Shown: positions 6,059-49,599 of the stretch, piece after piece
Layout: the number at the start of each line of letters is the position of its first letter
How positions within the stretch are numbered: the stretch's first letter is position 1
Source: Camelus ferus
Lineage: Eukaryota
NCBI RefSeq assembly: GCF_009834535.1
Contig: NC_045696.1
Location: 87,360,001-87,424,000 of the forward strand
DNA: 64,000 nucleotides
Direction: 5' to 3'
The notes under the pieces: model-generated
Databases searched by the model: none
Seen by the model: the letters and a program-made list of their open reading frames with translations, nothing else
Told to the model about the DNA's origin: nothing
Translations under genes and position numbers: made by a program

Positions 6059-6483
6059 GTATAGGATCAAATGCTGTGGCTGCACAATAGGCTGAAGGAC
6101 CTGGCTTAACCTGACCCAGTTTTCATTATAATGTAATTAACATCACAGTTTAAGCCCCCTCCAGTAGGTTTCTGTGTGTGCTTCCTGGGTAAGAACCTGC
6201 CCAAAAGGGATGGGTGTGCCTGAGCACAAGGAACATCAACTGTGAATCAACAAAATCGCCCCCTAAACCAGGATGTAAGACAGGAGAAACAAAGGAGTGG
6301 CACCATTTTTCCCTCTCTTCAATTGGCCCGCCCCCAATTCTCTGGGGTGTACTATATTTTAATACCTTTTTACCTTACTAATAAAATCTTCTGTTTATAT
6401 CATGCTTTCTGTCTGTCATTAAAAATTCATTTTTTGGTTGACTAAGAACTGAGCTAACTTTTATTCCCCTCCTCCTAGTAACA
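6058..6483 (+). mobile_element. ERV1-class solo LTR
   Basis: Ends ...gactaagaac...ctagtaaca like the LTRs at 23220 and 35018; AATAAA near 6380; left boundary ambiguous (6058 or 6065). Confidence 0.75.
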
Positions 6484-9324: not shown

Positions 9325-11769
9325 GAACTGATAGACTAGCTAATTAGTACACTGACAACAACAGCAGCAAGGCAATTGTTAGATTCCCAAGGCTTATATT
9401 TAAAAAATTAAACCCCATAGAGTTAAGGTAGAGCAGCAACAGTATTAAATTTCTGGATCTGTTGCTTAATTAAAATTTGCAGCACATTTTTTCCTATGAA
9501 CTATTATTTCTTTAAGTACAATTATCTTTGTCAAGGCATTACTGTACAGGCCTGATACCAAAGCAAGTTATAATTTTATCAGTATACATGCGTAGAAATT
9601 AAAATGTATTAAGAAAACCCATAAATTTGTACACAAATGACATAAAAATAACAATAATATTATTTATGAGTTTAATTAACAAGCATCACCAACCAAAATA
9701 AGTTTTCCTCACTAACTGCAAAAATTTCCTAATAAGAAGGAAAGAAAATTAAAGCTACTGCAGAAGACAGCTGTATAATTTTAGACAGCAACCTGCAGTT
9801 GCACTAGATTTAGTGTGCTGCAAAATTAGTTCTAGGGTTTTGACTATGATATAAATTTGTCTCATATGGCATTGTGGGGACTCTGTTTGCTGCATGCTAT
9901 TGTAAGAAGCTTTCAGGACTATTTCAGGTTTCTGAAATTTGTTCTTATCTTCCTACCGAGTTTGAGAAAAATAGCTGGAGTGATCCTGATTGAAGGCAAC
10001 TCACCCCACGTTTGCCAGGTTCCTTTTGAAAAGTTTTCTGTGACAAAGTGAGATGCTTCCTGGTATTTGTCAATTACGTTTTGAAAAGCTTTTGATTCTG
10101 ACCTGTAGGTTGTAAATTTACTATTGATGGGCCAGAAGAGGAGTGTTTTTTTTTTTTAAACGTAGAAGTGTTTAACAATTTAGTTGGGGCTGAAAGGAGC
10201 CTTAAAACTCTCAGACTGCCAACAAAAGAGGTCCAAAAAACTATAGCAGCAGGTACACGGACTGAAAAGGTTTTTTTTTTTTAGTAGAATAATGACTGAA
10301 CTCTGTTGCCACCTGTTTCATGAAGTGTTTCCCAGCTCCTGGATTCTAATGAATTGCTTTCTCTGCTCTGCTTCAGGAGCACTTTGGGCATTCTCATGTA
10401 TCCATATTCTTTGTTTTATACTTAGTTGTATACATTTCTGTTTCCTTCAACCCATTACAAGCTTCTTCAACGTGTAACTTTTTACTCAACTGTTACTCTT
10501 GCATCTAGATCAATAGTAATACTTAATGGGTACTGAATGAACATTATCTGACTTAAAGTGAATTTCAGAAGACACTGAGAAGTATAAAGAAAACAGAGGA
10601 AGCTGAAGACATTAAAAAATTAACAAAACATGTAAAATTATAAATCATGAGAGTTAATATCAAAAATAAGAGAATCAGTATTTCCACAGAAATAGAAATA
10701 ATTGAAGTTTCCTAAAATTACAAAATATGCATACTTACAATTTTTTAAATGATTAGTGAAATAACAGAAACCACAGTGGAGATGCTGTTCAAAAAGACCC
10801 AAGGAAAAAACCCTTACATCCAAGAAACAAAACAGCAGGGTTAGGTCAATTAAGCACTAATGGATAAGATAAACAGCAAGTTAAAACACGGTGGAAAAGA
10901 GGAAAACCAGAAACTCATTTTCAGGTAATGGTAGATTGGCAAAATCACATAAAATGTGCTACTGAGAATAACTAGGAAACAACAACACATATGTATTGAA
11001 AAATATATTTGTGTTGCATAGGCAAGGTCAGGGAGATGACTGAATAGAACAAGCTTCACCATGAGTTTTGGGGATACTTTTTCCCTTAGGTTGAGAGTCA
11101 GCCGAGAGTATGAAAAAATCAGCAAAGTTTTAATAGCCTTTTGCTTTACTGGGTTAACAAATGGAGTCAGAGTATGCCAAGAAGTAGAGAAGTAGCCAGA
11201 TTGGTTCTGGTTAATTAAAAAACAACAAGGACAACAAAAAACACTGGTTTTAGGCTGGCAGTTCAAGAAGAAGGAAAATGTAAATTGGAAATAGGTTCTT
11301 GCTATTTCAGGAACTCAAACCCATCTTTATATTATCACAAATACCGAAACTGAATGCAGAGCATCTGGAAATACTAATGCTTCTAATCTTGCTCTTGCCT
11401 GTGAAGAGCAGAAGTATGTCTCTGGAGAAAGTGGACATTAATTTAGTCATCAATGTGTAAAAGAATTCACAGACACACACACACACAAACTCTAGAAAAT
11501 AAAAATATTCAAGTCTCAAGGATACAAGAAAGTGCTACAGACTCGAAATAATCAGTAAGCATTATAAATACTGCTTGTTCAAATGCGACATTTACAAGAG
11601 CAAAGGTTATCAGACAGGGTTAAATTTCAACAATATACACCTTATAAGAACTACATCTTAAAAATAAGGATGCAATAAACTTAAAAGGACAGGAAAAAAT
11701 GATGTGCTGCAAACACATGGTCAAGAAAACTAGTTTAGCTTTATCATCCATTAAAGTAAGTGTTAAAGG

Positions 11770-15717: not shown

Positions 15718-15822
15718 TTTATTTATTTATTTTCTAATTATTTTTAATGGAGGTACTGGGGATTGAACCCAGGACCTCATGCATGCTAAGCACAGACTCT
15801 ACCACTGAGCTATACCCTCCCC
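15718..15822 (-). mobile_element. tRNA-Ala(AGC)-derived SINE, camelid Vic-1 type
   Basis: Reverse strand reads GGGGAGGGTATAGCTCAGTGGTAGAG (A box)...CTTAGCAT...GGTTCAATCCCC (B box) AGTACCTCCA plus an A-rich tail; degraded flanking repeat tgagggataaccaggttt / tgaagactaacctaattt. Confidence 0.9.
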
Positions 15823-23219: not shown

Positions 23220-23777
23220 TGTTAGGTAGTTAGATAAGTGGGCGCACTAGGCTGATAAGGTGGACCAAAGCAAAGATGGTCAGGAAGATGGCGGTATGCC
23301 CACCTCAAGCATAAAGGGGCTTTAGTTCCTCTAAATGAGTGCCAGCAAGAAACCAGTTAGAACCCAAGAGCTGCAAGTGCATGGTAGTGAGAAGGACCTA
23401 ACTGGACATGACCCAATGCTCATTGTAATATAATTAACATTGTGTGATTTAGGCCCCATTCCCATGGGTTTTCCTGTACGCATCATGGGTAAGGACATGC
23501 ACAAAGGGGACAAACATGACTAAGCATTCCAGGGGCAAGAGCTGTCAATCAATCAAAAGACCTCCTCTAAGCGGGGGTGTAAGAGAAGGGGCACACAAAG
23601 GTCGTGGCTTTTCCTCCCTTGGATCAGCTCGCTTCCCATTCTTGGAGGTATACTTTTCCTTTGCTAATAAATTCTTTAAAAATCTTTCACTATACAATGT
23701 TCTGTCTACCATCTGAAATCTTATCTTTGGGGTATGACAAGAACTGGGGTCTTTTCCCTTCCCCTTTTAGGGTAACA
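23220..23777 (+). mobile_element. ERV1-class solo LTR (same family as 35018-35695)
   Basis: TGTTAGG...GGGTAACA ends; AATAAA near 23666; long collinear similarity to 35156-35695. Confidence 0.92.
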
Positions 23778-24013: not shown

Positions 24014-24726
24014 TGCTGCAAGCGTAGGACACTGACAAAGGTCCAGAGAAGTGTGTCAGAGCCTTGCACTGTTATCAAGAACATGCAGAGGCACTCATGG
24101 CCATGACAGACAGGGTGGTTTTGAGGCGGGAAGCCCCATAAAAAGACCGGCAGGACCCCTAGGCAGGGCCGCTGCTCCGACCTGCTCCAGCTCCTTGCAC
24201 CCTGCAGCCTGGCCCAGAGGCTCTATCTCACTTTTTGCTTCTAAAGCAGCTAACTTACACCTAGAATTCTATTGGTTCCCTGAGCTCATTTCTGATTGGT
24301 TATTTCCTTCACTCCTGATTGCTTATTACTCTCACTCCTGATTGGTTATTAATCTCACTTCTGATTGGTTATTACTCTCACTTCTGATTGGTCCACTTGC
24401 CTAACTTCTCATTGGTCCATTTGTAGTACTTCATTTGCATGGAGCTCACTCCTGATTGATTTCTACAAAGCTTGTTCCTGGTTGGTCAACTTCTGTTTTA
24501 CTTTATCTGCATATGATGTTGCAAAGTGTAAAACTGGCAGCCTATAAAAGGCCTATGTAAACCTACAGACAGGGTCCAGAGCTTTAAGTGTTAACTTGTC
24601 TGGGCCCGCTGGCGTGATAAACCTGAGTTCTCCAACTCTCTGAGTGCTGCTTGGTCTCTCGCCCGGATCCAGGTTGCTGTCACAACTGAGCTGTAACACC
24701 AAGCTGTAACACATTTTTCCGCAACA
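24014..24726 (+). mobile_element. ERV1-class LTR with a CCAAT-box array
   Basis: tgctgc...gcaaca ends; TATAAAA at 24543; U5-like gctgtaacac repeats; no matching TSD. Confidence 0.85.
24270..24549 (+). promoter_or_regulatory. LTR U3 promoter: tandem inverted CCAAT boxes, octamer, TATA
   Basis: ATTGG at 24271, 24295, 24341, 24364, 24387 and 24411; ATTTGCAT at 24433-24440; TATAAAA at 24543-24549. Confidence 0.7.
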
Positions 24727-33162: not shown

Positions 33163-33624
33163 AATACAGTGCCTGGCAGGACCCTGTGAGGCCTTCCCGG
33201 GTCAGATCCCTCCCCTATCTCCTCTGCTGCAGCTCCTCTCTGAACTACCCAGATAATAGCATCTCATATATATTTCCTGAGTTTTCCAGATGCTGAAAAC
33301 CACCATCAAAGGGAAGAAATTAACTACTTGATGATCAAGAGCACATAGACCTAAACCTTCTGGTGCCTAGGGGTTGATAGTTACTGGCCGCCCTGTTGTC
33401 TCAACATAAACCAACCAGAGAATTGTGCACGAGCTGAGCCCGGAGCCTCCAACCCCCCTCCCTTGCTTGGCCTTTAAATATGCTTTGCTGAAACCCTTCT
33501 GGGAGTTCAGGGTTTTCTTGGGTATAAGCCACTAAGTCCTCCTTGCTCTGCCCTGCAATGAACCTTTTTCTGTTCCAAATTCCCATGTTTCAGTTTGGCC
33601 TCAGGAACTTGCATTTGGTTAACA
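33163..33624 (+). mobile_element. ERV1-class solo LTR inserted in a MIR
   Basis: cctttaaatatgctttgctgaaaccc...gcaatgaacc...ggaacttgcatttggttaaca; MIR-like tattatcaccccattgtacagatga on the left. Confidence 0.85.
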
Positions 33625-35017: not shown

Positions 35018-35695
35018 TGTTAAGCAGTTACTGGCCCGGAGCCTCCAACCCCCCTCCCTTGCCTGGCCTTTAAATATGCTTTGTTGAAACCCTGCTGGGA
35101 GTTCAGGGTTTTCTTGGGTATAAGCCACTAAGTCCTCCTTGTCCTCTTTCTGAATCAGTTAGGTACGTGGAGGCACCGAGGAGATGAGGTGGAGGCGAGG
35201 GAGAATGGTCTCAAAGATGGCAATATGCCCACCTCTAGCATAAGGAGCTTTACTTCCTCTAAATGAGTGCCAGTAAGAAACCAGTTGGGACTGGACAGCT
35301 GTGGTAGCAACAAGGACCTAACTGGACATGACACAACACATATTGTAATAAAATTAGCATTGCAGTTTAGCACCTCCCCCTTACCCCCCTGTGGACATTT
35401 CTGTGTCCATCATGGGTAAGGACACGCGCAAAAGGGGATGGGCATAACTAAGCACTCCAGGGGCAAGAGCTGTCAATCAATCAAGAGACCTCCTCTAAGC
35501 AAAAGTATAAGACAGAAGGACAATGAAAGACTGGGCTACCATTCTCTTTTGGATCAGCCTGCCTTTCACACTTGGAGGTGAACTTTGGCATTGCTAATAA
35601 TATCTTTAATATCTTTAAGTACACAATGCTTTTGTCTCCTGTCTGAACTCTTTCGGCGGAGACAAGAACCAAGGCCTCCCCCTTAGGGGGTAACA
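35018..35695 (+). mobile_element. ERV1-class solo LTR carrying a templated insertion near its 5' end
   Basis: TGTTAAGCAGTTA...GGGTAACA; 4-bp TSD ACCA (35014-35017 and 35696-35699); homologous to 23220-23777. Confidence 0.92.
35034..35141 (+). repeat. Direct copy of 33438-33545 (108 bp, 3 mismatches)
   Basis: Base-by-base comparison within the window. Confidence 0.97.
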
Positions 35696-40860: not shown

Positions 40861-43800
40861 TGAGATTCAAATTATACTCAGATGTTAGAAATTTTCACCT
40901 CATCCTCTGTGACTCTTAAAGCCCTTCTCTTTGTTTCTCATGTGTCTCTGTATTTATCTCTATTTCTCTTTATCTGTGCTGGTATTTTTTTTCTCCTGTC
41001 CTGTTTTCCAGTTTAATAATTGTGGTTTAAGTTTTGTCTACATATTTAATTCTGAATCCATGACTACATTTTCAATTCTAGAATTTCCTTTTGTTTCTTT
41101 TTACTATTTCCAGTTTTTGTGCTGAAAATACCAATTTTATTTTTTATTTCCTGGTAACTATTCAGCCTATTTATTTAAAAGACTGGTTTGGAGTGACATC
41201 AGCAATGTGGAGGCAATTAAGATGGTCCTCCTTATCCCCCTTTTTTATTCAACAAATTAGACATCCATACATAAACAAGAGTGACTTTGTTGGGGGTTTT
41301 CTAGGCTTTGCACCTTGCTACAAGAGATTCAAAGGGAATCTCACCTACCAGTGCAGGAGGTAGAAGGTAGACAAACTTCCACATGGGATGCAAAACCAGT
41401 GGAGCCCACAAGGCTGCCTGGATCCCTCTTCACTGCTGTCAGGCAGGAATCAGATTAGTACTTAAAACAGGCAGACCCTCATCCATGAAACTGAACTTGC
41501 AGAAGCTCAGCCCTTCTGAAGGAAGGTTCTGACCATTCGAGAGAAAAAAAAAAAGAAAAGAAAAACAAAAAGGAAAATATGAGTTTAGTAGCAGCAGAAG
41601 AAATAAGAAAAACTTTCCCATGTCACCTCACCCCCAAAGTGGGGCTGATTGGAACTAATTCATCTGGCAAAGGTGATTTCTCCCACTAGGAAATAAGATG
41701 TCATTGAGGGAGGGTCTGACCACTCCAGCTGGGCAGGATGATTTCTCTCCACCAGCACCTGGAGTACTAAGGTGAGAACTTTAAGACTTGGAGATGGAAA
41801 GAGACAGATGAGAATTTCAAACAGCCTTGAAAGCACTATGCTCAGCAGGAAGTCCATCCCGGAGCCTCTGGGAATGCCACCTCTGGGGATTTTCTTCCTG
41901 GGTCTCCACGTATCCTCACCGCACTGAGTGCTAGATCCACACCTCCCCAACTCTGCTGCTTGCTCCTTGTGCACAGAGAACAGCTCAGAAAAGCAATGAT
42001 CTGCGGGCAAGGGAGAAACCACAAACTTGAGCTAGTGCCACCTTCTAGAAAACAAATGAGTGGTTTCAATAGCCAGTCTGGTGAACTGTAAAAACCAGAG
42101 AAGACATAAAGTCTAAGTTAAGGAGATGCTTCTACTTGAAATGCATAAGTAAAAATGCATAACTAAAAGCAATATGAAAAATCAAGGAAATATGGTATTA
42201 CAAAAAGAAAATAATTTTCCAGCAGCTGAGCTCAAAAGACCTAGAATATTGTGATTTAACTGATAAAGTATTCAAAATATCTATCATGAAGAAACTCAAT
42301 GAACTAGAAGAAATCTCAGCAGGACAATTCAATGAACTCAGAAAAAAAAAATCTATGAACAGAAGGCTATTTTACCAAAGAAATTGATATTATGAGAAAA
42401 AAAACCCCAGAAATTCTAGAAGTGAAGGATTCAAGGAATGACATGAAGAATATCAAAGAGAGCACCTGAAACAGGGAACACCAGATAGAGGAAAGCATAA
42501 ATGAATAGGAGGAGAGGAATATGGAAATAACAGAAGAAGAGGGAGAACTCTGATTTAAAGAATGAAGAAAGCCTATAAAAACTATTGGATACTATCAAAA
42601 AGATTTATTGAATACTATCAAAAAGGCAAGTGTCAGAATAAATGGGATTCCAAAAGGATAAAGGAGGGAGGGAAGGAGGAGGGAACAGAGAGGTTATTTA
42701 AAGAAGTAAGAGCTGAGAACTTCCCAAGTGTAAGGGAAAACTGGGACATACAAGTCCACTAGCTAATACAATTCCCTATTATCTCAATGGAAAAATACCT
42801 GCTTTAAGACATATTAAAATGAAACTATAAAAAAATCAATGATAAAGAAAGAAACTGAAAGGCAGCCAGGGAACAAAATAATGAACCTAAAAAGGAACTA
42901 CCATTAGGCTATCAGCAGATTTCTCAGCACAAACTCTATAGGCCAGAAGAGAGTGGAATGACATATTCAAAGTGTTGAAAGATAAAAATGTCCGTCCAAG
43001 AATACATTACCTGGCAAAGTTAGTCTTTGGATATGAAGGCTTTTCCAGACAAACACAAACTGAGAGAATTCACTACCACTAGACCTGCCTTACAGGAAAT
43101 GCTAAAAGGAGTTCTTCAAGGTGAAATGAAAGACACTAGACAGCATCATGAAAATATGTCAAAATATACAACACACTGGTAAAGGTGGAAAATGTACAAT
43201 CTTAGAAAACTGTACCTCTGTATTAGGATGGTGTGTTAACCACTCAACTATAGTATAGAAAGGAAAGAATAGTAAAAATAACTGTACTGACTATAAACTG
43301 TTAATGAATACACAACATAAAAAGTAAATTGTAATGGTAGTAACATAAATGGGCAAGGGCTTTATAGGCATTCAAACGTAAGTTACCATCAGCCTAAAGT
43401 GGACTCTTATTGATAAGATATTTTATATGAAAAATCACAAGGTAACCACAAAGCAAAAACTTACAGTAGATCCATAAAAAACAAGGAAAGGAGAAAAAGA
43501 ACATACAAGCATGGAAAATAACCAATTTATGAAAGTAGGCAGAGACAGAAAAAGAAACAATGGAAATACAAAACAATCAGAAAGTAATTAAGAAGATGGT
43601 ATTAGTAAGTTCTTACATAAACAAAAACTACTGTAAAAGTAAATGGATTGAAATTACCAATCAAAAAGTTAGAGTGGCTGTATGAATTAAAATAAATCAA
43701 CTATACCCTGCTTACAAGTGACCAAATTCTGATTTAAGAATGCACATTGACTCAAAGTAAAGGGATGGAAAAAGATATCCCATGCAAGTAGAAACCAAAA

Positions 43801-44937
43801 GAAAGCAGGGATAGCTATACTTATATCAGACAAAATTGACTTTAGCCAAAAACAGTAATAAAATACAAGGAAGTTCATTATATAATGGGAAAGGGAACAA
43901 TCAATCAAGATATAACAATTATAAATATGTAAGTACCCAACATTGGAACACCTGAATATATTAAGCAAATACTAACAGAAATGAAAGGAGAAAAATATAA
44001 CAGTGCAATAATGGTGTGAGACATCAATGCCCTTTTAACAATGAATAGGTCATCCAGACAGAAAATCAAAGAAACAAATCAGTTTGAATCAGACCTTAGA
44101 CCAAATGGATCTAATAGACATTTATAGAACATTTTATCCAACAGTAGCAGAATACAGATTCCTCTCAATTGCACATGGAGCGTTCTCAAGGATAGATCAT
44201 ATGATAGGACAGAAAATAAATCTTAGGAAATTTAAGAAGACTGAAATCATACCAAGTCTCTTTTCTATCCACAATGGTTTGAAACTAGAAATCAGCAACT
44301 TTAGGAAAGCTGGAAAGTCTACAAGTATGTGAAAAATAAAGACTCCTAAACAACCAATGAATCAAAGATGAAATCAAAAGGGAAATCAGAGTAACTTGAA
44401 ACAAATGAAACAATAAACAACTTCCCCAAACCTATGGACACTGCAAAAGTGTTTCTGAGATGAAAATTTATAGCAATAAATGCTTATATTAAGATATTAG
44501 ATCATATATAAACAACCTAACTTTATAACTCAAGGAACTAAAAAAAGAACAGATTAATCCCAAAGTTAGTAGAAGGAAGGAAATAATAAAGATCAAAGTG
44601 GAACCAAATGTAATAGAGACCAGAAAAAAAAAAAAAAATAGAAAAGATCAATGAAACCAAGAGTTTTTTTTTACAAAAAGATAAACAAAATTGAGAAAAC
44701 TTTAGTGAGGTTAGTTAAGAAATAAAAATTCAGAAATGAAAGAGGAGATATAATAATTGACACTACAGAAATACACAGTATCCTCAGAGACTACTATGAA
44801 CAACAAATTAGATAAACTAGAAAAAATGGATAATTTCCTAGAATCATACAACCTACTGAGACTGATCCAGGAAGACATAGCAAGTCTGCAGAGATCAATA
44901 ATGAGAAAATAATTGAATCAATAATCATAAACCTCCC

Positions 44938-46283
44938 GAGGAAAGAAGCAAGATGGCAGAGTAGAAGGATGCTTGTAGCTCACCCTTTCCCACAAATACA
45001 CCAAAACTCACATCTACAGACCTACTCAGCCAACCAGAGCACCTGCTGAACTCCAAAAGAACATCACCTTCTTCGAAAGACAAAGACGTCAAAAATCTGG
45101 TAGGAGAAAAGAAAAAAAGAAAGAACAAAAAGCAAAACAGTGCGGGACTGATCTCACAGGGAGGGAGCGGCAAAGGAGGACTGGCGCTCATTCGCTGGGC
45201 CCCCCCCCCCTCCCAAGGAGAGGTCAGCGGGACAGAGGGGGAGCCTCTGAGGCTCAGATCTGCCCCAAGCACTCCTTGACTGACAGAATTGAGTTAAATG
45301 GGCACAAAGGGTCCCCACGACACCTAGCCAGAGATGCGAGCCGGCAACTGGGGGCCAGGACAGGTCTCCTGAGCCGGGCGGAGGACTGGGGCAACTGCAC
45401 TGAGGCAGCCCCAGGGGACTGCAGGGCGCTGCGCGCCATGGCTGGGAGGGGATACAGAGCAGAACAACCTCGGTCCCCCATAAATTGTGAAAAAAGCAAA
45501 GCAACAGGGCTGGTGTGCCCTGGGGGGAGGGGCGCCGTAGCCTTCTTCTCTTCAGACCTGCACCGCCATTACTGGCGCATCTCGCAAGGAGAGAGGCAGG
45601 GCGCAGCCATAGCTACCATCTCTTCCTGTGTGCAGAGCCTGGGTGGGGGGCAAGGCCAAGACCTGAATCTGCACCTGGGGGCTCCGCAACCTCCTAGGCA
45701 GGACTCAGACTTGTTTATAGCCTGAGGCAGATAGGATCTTTTTGCCCTGGCACCTCAGAGAACTCGCACTGCCAAGACAAACAAGGAGCTGAGATTTGGC
45801 ACAGAGCAGGGGTGGGGCTGTTCCACGGTCTTCCCCTAGCCGGCATTCAGAGTGCCAACCCCATGGGGAGGGCAGCTGCACAGAGCAGTGGAGCGACCAG
45901 TGCCAGGAGAGGGGGGGCGGCCACCTGCCTTCCTGGCAGGAACGCAGCACCTGACCACGGTGCTGGGAGGGGGTGTGATCCGCCCACCTGCCTCCTCACC
46001 TAGCACAGCATCTGACTGTGGCATCGGGAGGGGTTGTGACCCACCTGCCCACCAGGTAAGAGCTCAGCTCCTGACCCAGTGTTAGGAGAGGGCACGACCT
46101 GCTAGCCGACAGCCACTGGGAGCAGCACAGACGAGGGAGCCAACAGAGGGCCTCTGGAAACAGCAAGCTGAGTTCACAAAACAGGGTGAAGACACAAAGA
46201 CCTCTCGATAAAATCATTAAGAGCACACCATCTCCAGGAGAACTAGATAACTGATACTCCTTAAGCCACAGTGCCAGAGAGAT
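44938..46283 (+). promoter_or_regulatory. GC/CpG-rich L1 5'UTR internal promoter with a YY1-type site and ~60-bp monomers
   Basis: CAAGATGGC at 44949-44957; the most GC-rich block in the window; ccacctgcc-anchored repeats at 45921, 45984, 46041 and (variant) 46095. Confidence 0.75.
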
Positions 46284-47184
46284 ATGAGCAATATGAAGAA
46301 GCAGAGGAACCACTCCCAATTAAAAGATCAAGAGAAATCCCCTGAAAGCACAATTAACAAAATAGACACTGATGGCCTACTAGATCAAGATTTCAAAAAA
46401 GGAGTGATCAAAGTACTGAAGGAACTAAAAGAAACAGTGTTTAGAGATATAAAATATGTCAAAAATGAAATAGAAGCTATAAAGAAGAACCAAGTAGAAT
46501 TAGTAAACTCATTTGCTGAGATGAGATCTGACCTAAGGCTGTACAAAGCAGGCTAGATAATGCAAAGGAGCGAACAAGTGACCTAGAAGACAGGACAACA
46601 GAAAGCACCCAATCAGAACAGCTGAGAGAAAAATAAATAAAAAACAATGAAAACAATATAAGGGACCTATGGGATAATATAAAGTGTGTCAATCTATGCA
46701 TAATAGGGGTTCCAGAAGGGGAAGAAAGAACAAAGGGGATTGAAAAGGTATTTGAAGAAATCATGACTGAAAACTTCCCAAATCTAAAGAAAGAAACAGA
46801 TATCCAAGTACAGGAGGCTCAGAGGGTCCCAAACAGGAAGAACCCAAATAACCCACATCAAGACATATCATAATCAAGATGCCCAGAGTCAAGGAAAAAG
46901 AAATGATTCTAAAGGCAGCAAGAGAAAAACAAAGAGTGAGTTACAAGGGAACCCCCATAAGGCTCTCAGCTGATTTCTCTACATAAACGCTACAGGCCAG
47001 AAGGGAGTGGCAAGATATATTCAAAGTCCTGAATGAAAAAAAGATGCAGCCTAGTATACTTTATCCAGCAAAGCTATCCTTTAGAATAGAAGGAGAGATA
47101 AAGAACTTCACAGAGAAGCAAAAACTACAAGAGTTTAGCAACACTAAACCCATGCTAAAAGAAATATTCAGAGGTCTACTCTAA
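46284..47184 (+). pseudogene. L1 ORF1p, disrupted by frameshifts and stop codons
   Basis: MSNMKKQRNHSQLKDQEKSPE...IRDLWDNIK...IIGVPEGEE...ENFPNL...PIRLSADFS...ARREWQDIFKVL...ILYPAKLSF...RGLL*. Confidence 0.95.
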
Positions 47185-47327
47185 ATAGAAAAGAAGCAGA
47201 AAGAAACAAAAATGAGAAACTCATAACTGGAAAGGAGATAACTGCCATGAATTACAAAAAGAATAAACACAAAATTGTAAAAGAAGACATCTAAATCATT
47301 AAGAGTGGGAGAGGGAAGCAAGGAAAG

Positions 47328-47696
47328 CCACTGTGGAAAACAGTATGGAGATTCCTCAAAAGACTAGGAATACGCTTACCATATGACCCAGGAATCCCGC
47401 TCCTGGGCATATATCCAGAAGGAACCTTACTTCAAAATGACACCTGCACCCCAATGTTCATAGCAGCACTATTTACAATAGCCAAGACTTGGAAATAACC
47501 TAAATGTCCATTAACAGATGACTGGATAAAGCTGAAGTGGTATATTTATACAATGGAATACTATTCAGCCATAAAAACCGACAACATAACACCATTTGCA
47601 GCAACATGGATGTTCCTGGAGAATGTCATTCAAAGTGAAGTAAGCCAGAAAGAGAAAGAAAAATACTATATGAGGTCACTCATATGTGGAATCTAA
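47328..47696 (+). pseudogene. L1 ORF2p extreme C-terminal remnant
   Basis: PLWKTVWRFLKRLGIRLPYDPGIPLLGIYP...CTPMFIAALFTIAKTWK*PKCP...WYIYTMEYYSAIK...SLICGI*. Confidence 0.93.
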
Positions 47697-49599
47697 AAAA
47701 ATAAATAACTAAATAAATACAAAACAGAAACAGACTCATAGACATAGAATACAAACTTGTGGTTGCCAAGGGTGTGGGGGGTGGGAAGGGACAGAATGGG
47801 ATTTTAAAATGCAGAATAGATAAACGAGATTATACTGTATAGCACAGGGAAATATATACAAGATCTTGTGGTAGCTCATAGAGAAAAAAAATGTGACAAT
47901 GAATATATATACGTTCATGTATAACTGAAAAATTGTGCTCTACACTGGAATTTGACACAACATTGTAAAATGACTATTACTCAATAAAAAAATGTAAAAA
48001 AAAATATCAAAAACCTCCCAACACAGAAAATGCCAGGACCAGACGACTTCATGGACAAGTACTACCAAACATTTAAAGAAAAATTAATGCCAATTTCTCC
48101 CAAACTCTTCCAAAAAATTGAAGAGGCAAGAATTCTAAACTTATTCTAAAGGCCAGCATTTCCCTGATACCAAATCTAGATAAAGATACTACAAGAAAAC
48201 TATACAACAGTATCTCTGATGACAAAATTCTCAACAAAATATTAGCAAACTGAGTTCAATAATTTGATATATTACACCATGATCGGGTGGGATTTCTCCC
48301 TGGGAAACAAGGATGGTTCAACATATGCAAATCAAGAAATGTGATACACCACATTAAGAGAATGAAAGAAAAAAAAATCTTCATCATCTCAAAATATGTA
48401 GAAAAGAAATTTGACTAAAATGCAACATTCCTTAATGATAAAACCCTTAACAAGTTGAGTGTATAAAAAACATACCTCAACATAATAAGGGACATATACA
48501 ACAAACCCACAGCTAACATACTCAACAGAGAAGAATTGAAGGCTTTTCCTCTAGCATCAGGAAATGTACAAAAGTGCCCATTCTCACTACTGTTATTCAA
48601 CACAGTACTGGAAGTCCTAGCTAGAGCAATCTGGCAAGACAATAAACAAACAAACAAACAAACAAATAAATATCATTCAAATTGGAAAAGAAGTAAAATT
48701 ATCACTATTTGCTGTTAATAGATCTTATATATCAAAAATCCCAAAGACACACTTTAAAAAAAATCTATTGGATCTAATCAATGCATTCAGTAAAGTTGCA
48801 GGATAAAAAAATCAACACACAAAATTCGGTTGCATTTCTATACACTAACACTATGGGGTTGATACCCAATTTTATAAAAAAAAAAAGGTCATAAAACTCA
48901 GTAACAAAAAACACAAACAATCCAATTTAACAATGGTCAGAAAAACTAAATACACATTTTTCCAAAGAAGACATCCAAATGGTGAACAGGTACATAAGAA
49001 GGTATTCAACATCAACAATTATCAGGGAAATGAAAATAAAAACAACAACGAGGTATCTCATACCTATAAGAATGGCTACTATGAAGACAGGAGCTAAGTA
49101 GTGGTGATAAAGATGGGGGAAAAATGTAATGTTTGTGCCCTATTGGTGAGACTGTAAACTATTTCAGCCGCTGGGGAAATGGTATTGGTTGCCTTTGTAA
49201 CCATGTATCCATTTAATCTCAATATTTAAGAACTCTGCATATCAGGAACAATATAAAATTTGTTGTCTTTTCTTTTGATCATTCCCACTGCCATCACTGC
49301 CAACATTTAATTTTAGTTGGTTATATTAGTACTAGTTCTTTTATTGTTGCTTTAAATCTTACGTATTCTTGAATATATTACATGATTAATCATATTTTAT
49401 AGCTATATATTGACCTTTTTTTTAAATTATAGGGAAATCAATATTATACAGTCTCCCATATTCTCTTTTATGCCTGACTGTTGTAGTTACTAGTTTAACA
49501 TGCTCTTCATAGTTTATAACATAAAAAAATCTATTTGGAAACCATATTTTCCACAAGTTCGGTTCTTTAGTTAAATTGATTCAATATGCATTGCCAGTT

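Follow-up and report, generated by a model that had tools for sequence, protein, structure and literature searches.

On the forward strand of the window, i.e., the entire 64-kb stretch of DNA analysed, positions 44938–48005 are occupied by a camelid L1 of 3,068 bp, consisting of a full 5′ UTR, ORF1, a 143-nt inter-ORF spacer, the tail of ORF2 and an L1 3′ end (Table 1). This anatomy agrees with that given in an earlier note on this DNA (~3.07 kb with complete 5′ UTR, ORF1, ~140 bp of spacer, ORF2 end and poly(A)). At least 3.45 kb is missing from the element, and ORF2 residues 1–1151 are absent. An autonomous L1 possesses an ORF2 with endonuclease and reverse transcriptase; here, only ORF2p residues 1152–1274 are represented. 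The claimed absence of the endonuclease, reverse transcriptase and cysteine-rich regions holds; the ORF2p portion starts just past the zinc knuckle.

Table 1 Features of the truncated L1 and of the older L1 surrounding it (window coordinates)
Feature	Position	Strand	Remark
Host older L1, 5′ part	41190..44937	+	start set by eye
Left TSD	44924..44937	+	14 bp; 14–16 bp by choice of A-tail cut
5′ UTR	44938..46283	+	1,346 bp, 58 % G+C
ORF1	46284..47184	+	full length, ~300 codons, dead
Inter-ORF spacer, first 143 nt	47185..47327	+	ends at junction
Spacer end resembling ORF2 upstream of resumption point	47305..47327	+	partial likeness
ORF2 tail, last 122 codons	47328..47696	+	human ORF2p 1152–1274
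3′ UTR	47697..47982	+	
Polyadenylation signal and decayed A tail	47983..48005	+	
Right TSD	48006..48019	+	
Host older L1, ORF2 continuation	48020..49190	+	from human residue 467

The element is bounded by two 14-bp copies of a target-site duplication (TSD) with one mismatch. Among the 63,985 plus-strand 14-mers of the window, only these two copies lie within one mismatch of the left TSD. Both ends are intact, as proposed. AATAAA at 47983 is followed by an A-rich tail, so that both marks of target-primed insertion in the L1 clade, TSD and A tail, are present. Nesting in an older L1 had also been proposed; indeed, the ORF2 of this host L1 can be read continuously once the insert is removed. The inserted RNA had a complete L1 5′ end and an A tail, and its integration into the older L1 generated the TSD. 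The 5′ part of the host contains an ORF1 remnant (42682–43116) and the ORF2 start codon (43596), and its ORF2 has suffered its own deletion of ~0.9 kb near 48850 (512 nt versus ~1,389 expected).

The G+C-rich 5′ UTR begins directly after the left TSD, so that the putative internal promoter region is retained. It harbours the motif AAGATGG at 44950, which we take to be a YY1 motif, as well as imperfect repeats of ~60 bp (45921–46076), and its CpG observed/expected ratio of 0.32 indicates partial decay. A structured RNA gene within the element was rejected by an Rfam scan. A twin-priming inversion was rejected because the element contains no reversed piece.

The Pfam domains Transposase_22 (PF02994) and Tnp_22_dsRBD (PF17490) were found in ORF1, with domains in three of the four ORF1 pieces scanned. 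Compared with P0002, an intact relative of 300 residues that matches the solved human ORF1p, ORF1 is complete and 80–86 % identical by piece, and has the RRM and C-terminal domains by which ORF1p of the L1 clade is recognised. An intact reading frame was rejected: in the present copy ORF1 is dead owing to two frameshifts (near 46537 and 46855) and two stops (46634 and 46984). The ORF2 tail begins right after the zinc-knuckle region (47328–47693 align to the human residues) and contains zero frameshifts and one internal stop (47496). Among the best 120 protein matches, it is 81–88 % identical to the seven named ORF2 models of Camelus dromedarius which, in contrast to the ORF2 of the element, also include the zinc-knuckle region and sequence upstream of it. 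For camelids, Repbase lists the L1 families L1-1_Vpa, L1-2_Vpa and L1-3_Vpa (PMC6726744). Decay is equal in both halves, with 17 of 222 residues changed in ORF1 versus 9 of 122 in the ORF2 tail; in the single copy compared, ORF1 is no less diverged than the tail, and broken.

At 47327/47328 the spacer breaks off and the sequence resumes directly beyond the zinc knuckle, at residue 1152 of ORF2p in human numbering. The AG ahead of the resumption point, given for the L1 consensus in the earlier note, is present in all four full ORF2 contexts read as DNA (one from outside the locus and three older L1s of the window, serving as stand-ins for the camel parent). At the protein level, Gln precedes the resumption point in 21 of the 22 anchorable camel-type ORF2 proteins (of 25). 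The break may equally well be placed two bases leftward, whereby AG belongs to the ORF2 side. Spacer end and resumption context have this AG and a hexamer 16–17 nt ahead of the break in common. The spacer end ranks as the best or second-best match to this context among 139–142 spacer positions (chance level 1–4 %, in a post hoc test with an ad hoc score and a back-translated peptide). With AG disregarded, the resemblance weakens to 85 of 2,320 positions. The sequence favours a jump guided by homology between spacer end and resumption site, since the two are partly alike and the would-be splice acceptor is pyrimidine-poor (5, 7, 8 and 2 of 17 at positions −20 to −4 of the four stand-in L1s). 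Of the two mechanisms offered previously, deletion by short homology would thus fit somewhat better and splicing less well. The spacer of the host L1 is too diverged to reveal the bases following the break.

The combination of a present ORF1, a retained 5′ UTR and absent ORF2 enzyme domains (apart from the 122-codon remnant) corresponds to that of half-L1 (HAL1) elements. The locus may therefore be one copy, now decayed, of a HAL1-type element derived from a camelid L1, a tentative reading assigned a probability of roughly 0.42. Of the HAL1-like interpretation suggested before, the layout and the insertion by the L1 machinery (TSD, full 5′ end, A tail) stand, whereas ORF1 is non-coding in this copy. 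The deletion extends from 143 nt past the ORF1 stop to 122 codons ahead of the ORF2 stop. It thereby takes out the enzyme but leaves promoter, complete ORF1 and 3′ end in place, which argues for the HAL1-type reading; by a rough base-rate consideration, random deletions would seldom be so placed, while a family would yield many such copies. Further support comes from the ranking of the spacer end against the resumption context. The deletion would have arisen earlier, in a source copy, presumably when a stretch of the spacer was joined to a loosely similar one close to the ORF2 end. With promoter and ORF1 kept, this source could have been transcribed and its RNA coated by its own ORF1p, while full-length L1s provided the ORF2p for copying. 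According to the available text of the respective reports, RNA composed of 5′ UTR and ORF1 retrotransposes when ORF2p is supplied in trans (PMC2666806), and HAL1s originated several times independently in mammals (PMC5753468). Against the HAL1-type reading, one survey reveals no excess of ORF1-only L1s in the dromedary (677, versus 326 L1s that have both ORFs, as compared with 2,918 versus 266 in human; PMC5203782), and a camelid HAL1 is not named in the literature searched. In addition, the ORF2 tail is not more eroded than ORF1 and hence does not point to a non-autonomous lineage of long standing, and the host L1 shows that an individual copy can lose a large part of ORF2.

A second copy of the junction, the lack of which also counts against the HAL1-type reading, was not seen, but this carries little weight because the collections searched are nearly devoid of camel DNA. 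Within the window, the junction pattern matched only the element itself. Patterns for the junction, the spacer and the camel-type ORF2 tail were all without match in viral contigs, and ORF1 queries retrieved no locus from viral, prokaryote or metagenome contigs, all with almost no camel DNA. The junction peptide yielded at least one metagenome locus (L001, the ordinary L1 end of another mammal), two weak viral matches and none in prokaryote genomes; plasmid and phage collections gave no match. In the protein search, the junction-spanning peptide returned no candidate, its one match among representatives being an ordinary ORF2 tail, and a spacer-like peptide was absent among proteins P0001–P0143. 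All clusters returned by the protein atlas were unnamed, and the recognition value fell short of the threshold. As even ordinary L1 DNA of the camel is missing from the same collections, these blanks say nothing in favour of a single copy. Of 314 sampled words of sequence, 53–58 % were present in 14 sequencing runs (DNA or unstated kind) from three organisms, and 14–40 % in six RNA sequencing runs; neither set can separate the orthologue from sister copies or is informative on the junction, and both were disregarded.

Among known HAL1s, RNHAL1 of the rat reportedly goes back to Bao and Jurka in 2010. As described in the available text on HAL1 and RNHAL1, these share with the camel element an L1 5′ UTR and ORF1 without endonuclease and reverse transcriptase, an A tail, a TSD, a length of ~3 kb and closeness to the contemporary L1 of their own genome (PMC2241872, PMC5753468). 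Differing from RNHAL1 as portrayed there, the camel element keeps 122 in-frame ORF2 codons and the 3′ UTR of its parent, has a dead ORF1 and is so far represented by this one locus.

A one-off deletion, either after or during insertion, is judged just as likely as the HAL1-type reading if both routes are taken together; internally deleted single L1 copies, exemplified by the host L1, show the same anatomy as the element. Taken alone, later loss of at least 3.45 kb from a normally inserted full-length L1 by genomic deletion at short similarities is an unlikely origin of what would then be a single copy, immobile as such. The equal decay of both halves, the deletion in the host L1 alongside and the junction resemblance agree with it, but a deletion sparing exactly the parts needed by a HAL1 would have to hit a small target by chance. 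Still less likely, reverse transcription of a full-length L1 RNA that made its own ORF2p may have skipped the middle of the template during a single insertion, by a template jump or by end-joining of 3′ cDNA to 5′ cDNA, so that the copy was deleted from birth. In the available text, new L1 insertions are described as showing template switching as well as short microhomology at junctions (PMC11702581; bioRxiv 2024.08.27.596794), the TSD length falls into the 12–18 bp range given there, and the even decay is compatible. However, in the accessible part of a series of 3,611 solo L1s from tumours, deletions inside the insert accompany 5′ inversions and are small, with a median of 14.5 bp, and a non-inverted skip of several kb is not among its classes (bioRxiv 2024.08.27.596794), whereas the element is without inversion.

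That the element is a copy of a spliced L1 RNA moved in trans, with a donor in the spacer and the acceptor just after the zinc-knuckle codons, is unlikely. AAG before the break resembles the end of a donor exon, and Gln and AG precede the resumption point almost throughout. Spliced L1 copies (SpIREs) account for ~2 % of full-length primate L1s according to the available text, and likewise combine intact ends with a lost internal piece and AG at the junction; the classes described there, however, lose the 5′ UTR or 5′ UTR/ORF1 and are dead ends, whereas the camel element keeps both and lacks most of ORF2 (PMC5860796). Moreover, the acceptor tract is poor in pyrimidines, AG is common anyway (12.7 % of the dinucleotides in the element spacer), and splicing leaves the upstream resemblance unexplained. 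A mis-joined full-length L1 is hardly to be expected, for although long repeats are prone to mis-joins in assemblies, the junction sequence is without gap and at most a few bases match at the join, too few for an overlap-based collapse.

All of these readings are of known kinds, and surprise could come only from a splice-born family that stayed mobile. That a spliced L1 RNA with promoter and ORF1, having dropped ORF2, founded such a self-perpetuating non-autonomous camelid family is very improbable; it would contrast with human SpIREs, dead ends in the text available. If the element does belong to a family, it would constitute a further independent HAL1 origin with an unusually clean birth mark, i.e., a single junction against a near-identical parent, directly showing whether half-L1s arise by deletion or splicing. 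As a single copy, it would be an ordinary fossil, useful solely as a camelid lineage marker.

The spacer also contains an ATG (47247) that shares its frame with the ORF2 tail, this frame being closed by a stop at 47292. Under the very improbable splice-born reading, and if the stop arose only after the junction, the source would also have encoded a protein of ~149 residues consisting of the C-terminal ORF2p segment led by the spacer ATG, which, if true, could have interfered with L1.

The element, an ORF2-deleted L1 nested in an older (host) L1, spans 3,068 bp (44938-48005) between 14-bp target site duplications (TSD; 44924-44937 and 48006-48019) differing at one position. With at most one mismatch, the left copy occurs at only 2 of 63,985 plus-strand 14-mers of the window, which are the two TSD copies. 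Removal of the element and one TSD copy leaves the host reading frame unbroken, the right side restarting at human ORF2p residue 467. Since TSDs flank the element and the host frame continues across the empty site, it is a real insertion into ORF2 of the older L1, in the same orientation; both ends and the nesting claimed in the earlier note were thereby recovered. The TSD length fits the 12–18 bp stated for new L1 insertions in PMC11702581. The host L1 lacks ~0.9 kb of ORF2 near 48850, between reverse-transcriptase and C-terminal regions (512 nt present vs ~1,389 expected).

Features of the element and a SINE-like sequence elsewhere in the window
Feature	Position	Strand	Details
5' part	44938-46283	+	1,346 bp, 58 % G+C, CpG observed/expected 0.32
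ORF1	46284-47184	+	of 4 pieces scanned, 3 match Pfam Transposase_22 and Tnp_22_dsRBD
Inter-ORF spacer remnant	between ORF1 and junction	+	143 nt
ORF2 tail	47328-47693	+	aligned to human ORF2p 1152-1274
3' end		+	3' UTR, AATAAA at 47983, A-rich tail
tRNA-Ala-like head and A-rich tail	15748-15819	-	

The predicted ORF1-retaining architecture (complete 5' UTR, ~140-bp spacer, last ~120 ORF2 codons) was found, with 143 nt of spacer and 122 codons (the tail) meeting at 47327/47328. As the tail starts at human ORF2p residue 1152, the endonuclease and reverse transcriptase part is absent; ORF2 resumes just downstream of a Cys/His-rich stretch, as read in a camel-type ORF2 protein, which we take to be the zinc knuckle. 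At least 1,151 ORF2 codons (3,453 nt) are missing, together with the remainder of the spacer (~470 nt in the host L1 vs 143 nt). No inverted piece was found within the element. ORF1 spans all 300 residues of an intact relative (P0002) and is dead, with frameshifts near 46537 and 46855 and stops at 46634 and 46984. The premature stops in the two reading frames (46634, 46984 and 47496) are all TAA, which may simply be the nonsense mutation that A-rich L1 sequence acquires most often. Imperfect repeats of ~60 bp occupy 45921-46076 in the 3' part of the 5' UTR.

Camelus dromedarius ORF2 models take the first five places among the tail's protein matches (82–88 % identity), and 7 of the best 120 of 7,999 matches carry this species name. 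From the column majority of the 22 (of 25) camel-type ORF2 pieces that allowed anchoring, the tail differs at 9 of 122 residues; 18 of the 22 pieces deviate from their own majority by 5–15 residues, and four, indel-shifted or fused to other sequence, by 24–54. For ORF1, a comparison limited to the 222 columns with agreement between two or more of three relatives gives 17 differences (45 of 297 residues against P0002 alone). Both parts are thus similarly decayed, at ~7.5 % residue change each, which would correspond to 3–4 % at the DNA level. Supplement rows of PMC6726744 assign to three Camelus species, but not to alpaca, an L1-1_Vpa (Repbase) copy at 97 % similarity; the element may date from the same period. 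The equal decay gives no sign of tail drift in a long-lived non-autonomous lineage. A HAL1-type (half-L1, ORF1 kept without the ORF2 enzyme) family sprung directly from an active L1 would show the same pattern, since rat RNHAL1 is reported to be 98 % identical to active L1 over its 5' 2,600 bases (PMC2241872).

The element is a genuine ORF2-deleted L1 of camelid type and is now dead. Target-primed reverse transcription inserted a copy of an L1-derived RNA that had a complete 5' end and an A tail, and decay followed. Tentatively (probability about 0.4), the deletion preceded insertion and a HAL1-type element was moved in trans, mainly because exactly promoter, ORF1 and 3' end are spared, a small target for chance by rough base-rate reasoning, and because HAL1s arose repeatedly. 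Such an RNA would be unable to encode ORF2p and would have to borrow it; 5' UTR-ORF1 RNA is reported to retrotranspose given ORF2p in trans (PMC2666806), and HAL1s are described as living by such borrowing (PMC5753468, PMC4859970, PMC8535693). The odds are about even between a new family of HAL1 type and a deletion confined to one copy, each of them a known kind.

Less probable is insertion of a full-length L1 followed by genomic deletion, for which the host L1 with its own 0.9-kb ORF2 loss offers a parallel. Slightly behind ranks skipping of the middle of the template during a single insertion; internal deletions of new insertions are described as short in most cases and associated with inversions (bioRxiv 2024.08.27.596794).

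A spacer hexamer lies 17 nt before the break; in ORF2 the same hexamer is fixed by Trp-Trp-Glu codons, 16 nt ahead of where the sequence resumes. In a comparison with back-translated camel ORF2 peptide the true break outscores all 142 other spacer positions, its score being reached at 29 of 2,320 element positions; with the last two bases omitted, it is reached at 1 of 140 and 85 of 2,320, respectively. This post hoc, modest resemblance favours a homology-guided jump, one of the two origins the earlier note had considered.

The other, a copy of spliced L1 RNA, is unlikely. Of the 22 anchored camel-type proteins, 21 carry Gln directly ahead of the resumption point; among the best 120 of 7,999 tail matches, 94 of 98 anchored proteins do so. 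The AG named in the earlier note was indeed seen in all four DNA contexts read (an ordinary L1 end of another mammal and three older L1s of the window), and the element reads AAG immediately before the break. The dinucleotide may be left over from splicing, may be a two-base microhomology or may simply begin the ORF2 side. However, AG makes up 12.7 % of the element's spacer dinucleotides, and in the four L1s, stand-ins for the camel parent, only 5, 7, 8 and 2 of the 17 bases at positions -20 to -4 of the would-be acceptor are pyrimidines. The continuation of the parent's spacer past the break, where splicing would call for GT, did not turn up in the collections searched. Still more doubtful is a family that arose by splicing and stayed mobile. 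It might also have encoded a short protein of the ORF2 C-terminal part, starting at spacer ATG 47247, which is in frame with the tail (47247-47696, 149 codons); in the element a stop at 47292 closes this frame, and the protein collections searched yielded no protein carrying the spacer-tail join. An assembly error is the least credible explanation.

All HAL1 layout features were found, bearing out the proposed analogy in this respect; repeated mobilisation defines HAL1s, and the element, known here from one copy, is therefore not filed as one. The classes of SpIREs (spliced integrated retrotransposed elements) described in PMC5860796, where they are called dead ends, lose promoter or ORF1 sequence, whereas the element keeps both and loses ORF2. 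No camelid HAL1 was named in the literature searched, outside which lay Repbase, Bao and Jurka 2010 and the supplements of PMC8605555 and PMC3183009. ORF1-only vs two-ORF L1s number 677 vs 326 in dromedary and 2,918 vs 266 in human (PMC5203782 supplement), i.e., no dromedary excess over human in that survey. The window holds no second junction copy. Outside it, among the matches listed from viral, metagenome, prokaryote and protein collections, junction and junction peptide retrieved no further copy but ordinary L1 ends, which carries little weight because ordinary camel L1 DNA was likewise not found in those collections. Weak tblastn matches of the tail peptide to viral contigs L002 and L003 (match at 10001; E 1e-4) are probably due to chance.

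Elsewhere in the window, the tRNA-Ala-like sequence resembles the camelid SINE and is most likely one rather than a tRNA gene; together with the dromedary matches of the tail it marks the window as camelid. Related LTR-like repeats lie 11.9 kb apart (23228-23584 and 35157-35512; blocks 72–85 % identical), with a third piece near 6085-6209. Two 108-nt stretches within LTR-like repeats (33438-33545 and 35034-35141; 1.6 kb apart, 97 % identical) are much more alike than the repeats around them and possibly represent a templated local copy. A 23-bp unit is tandemly repeated at 24285-24432 (~4.7 copies, 87 % matches).
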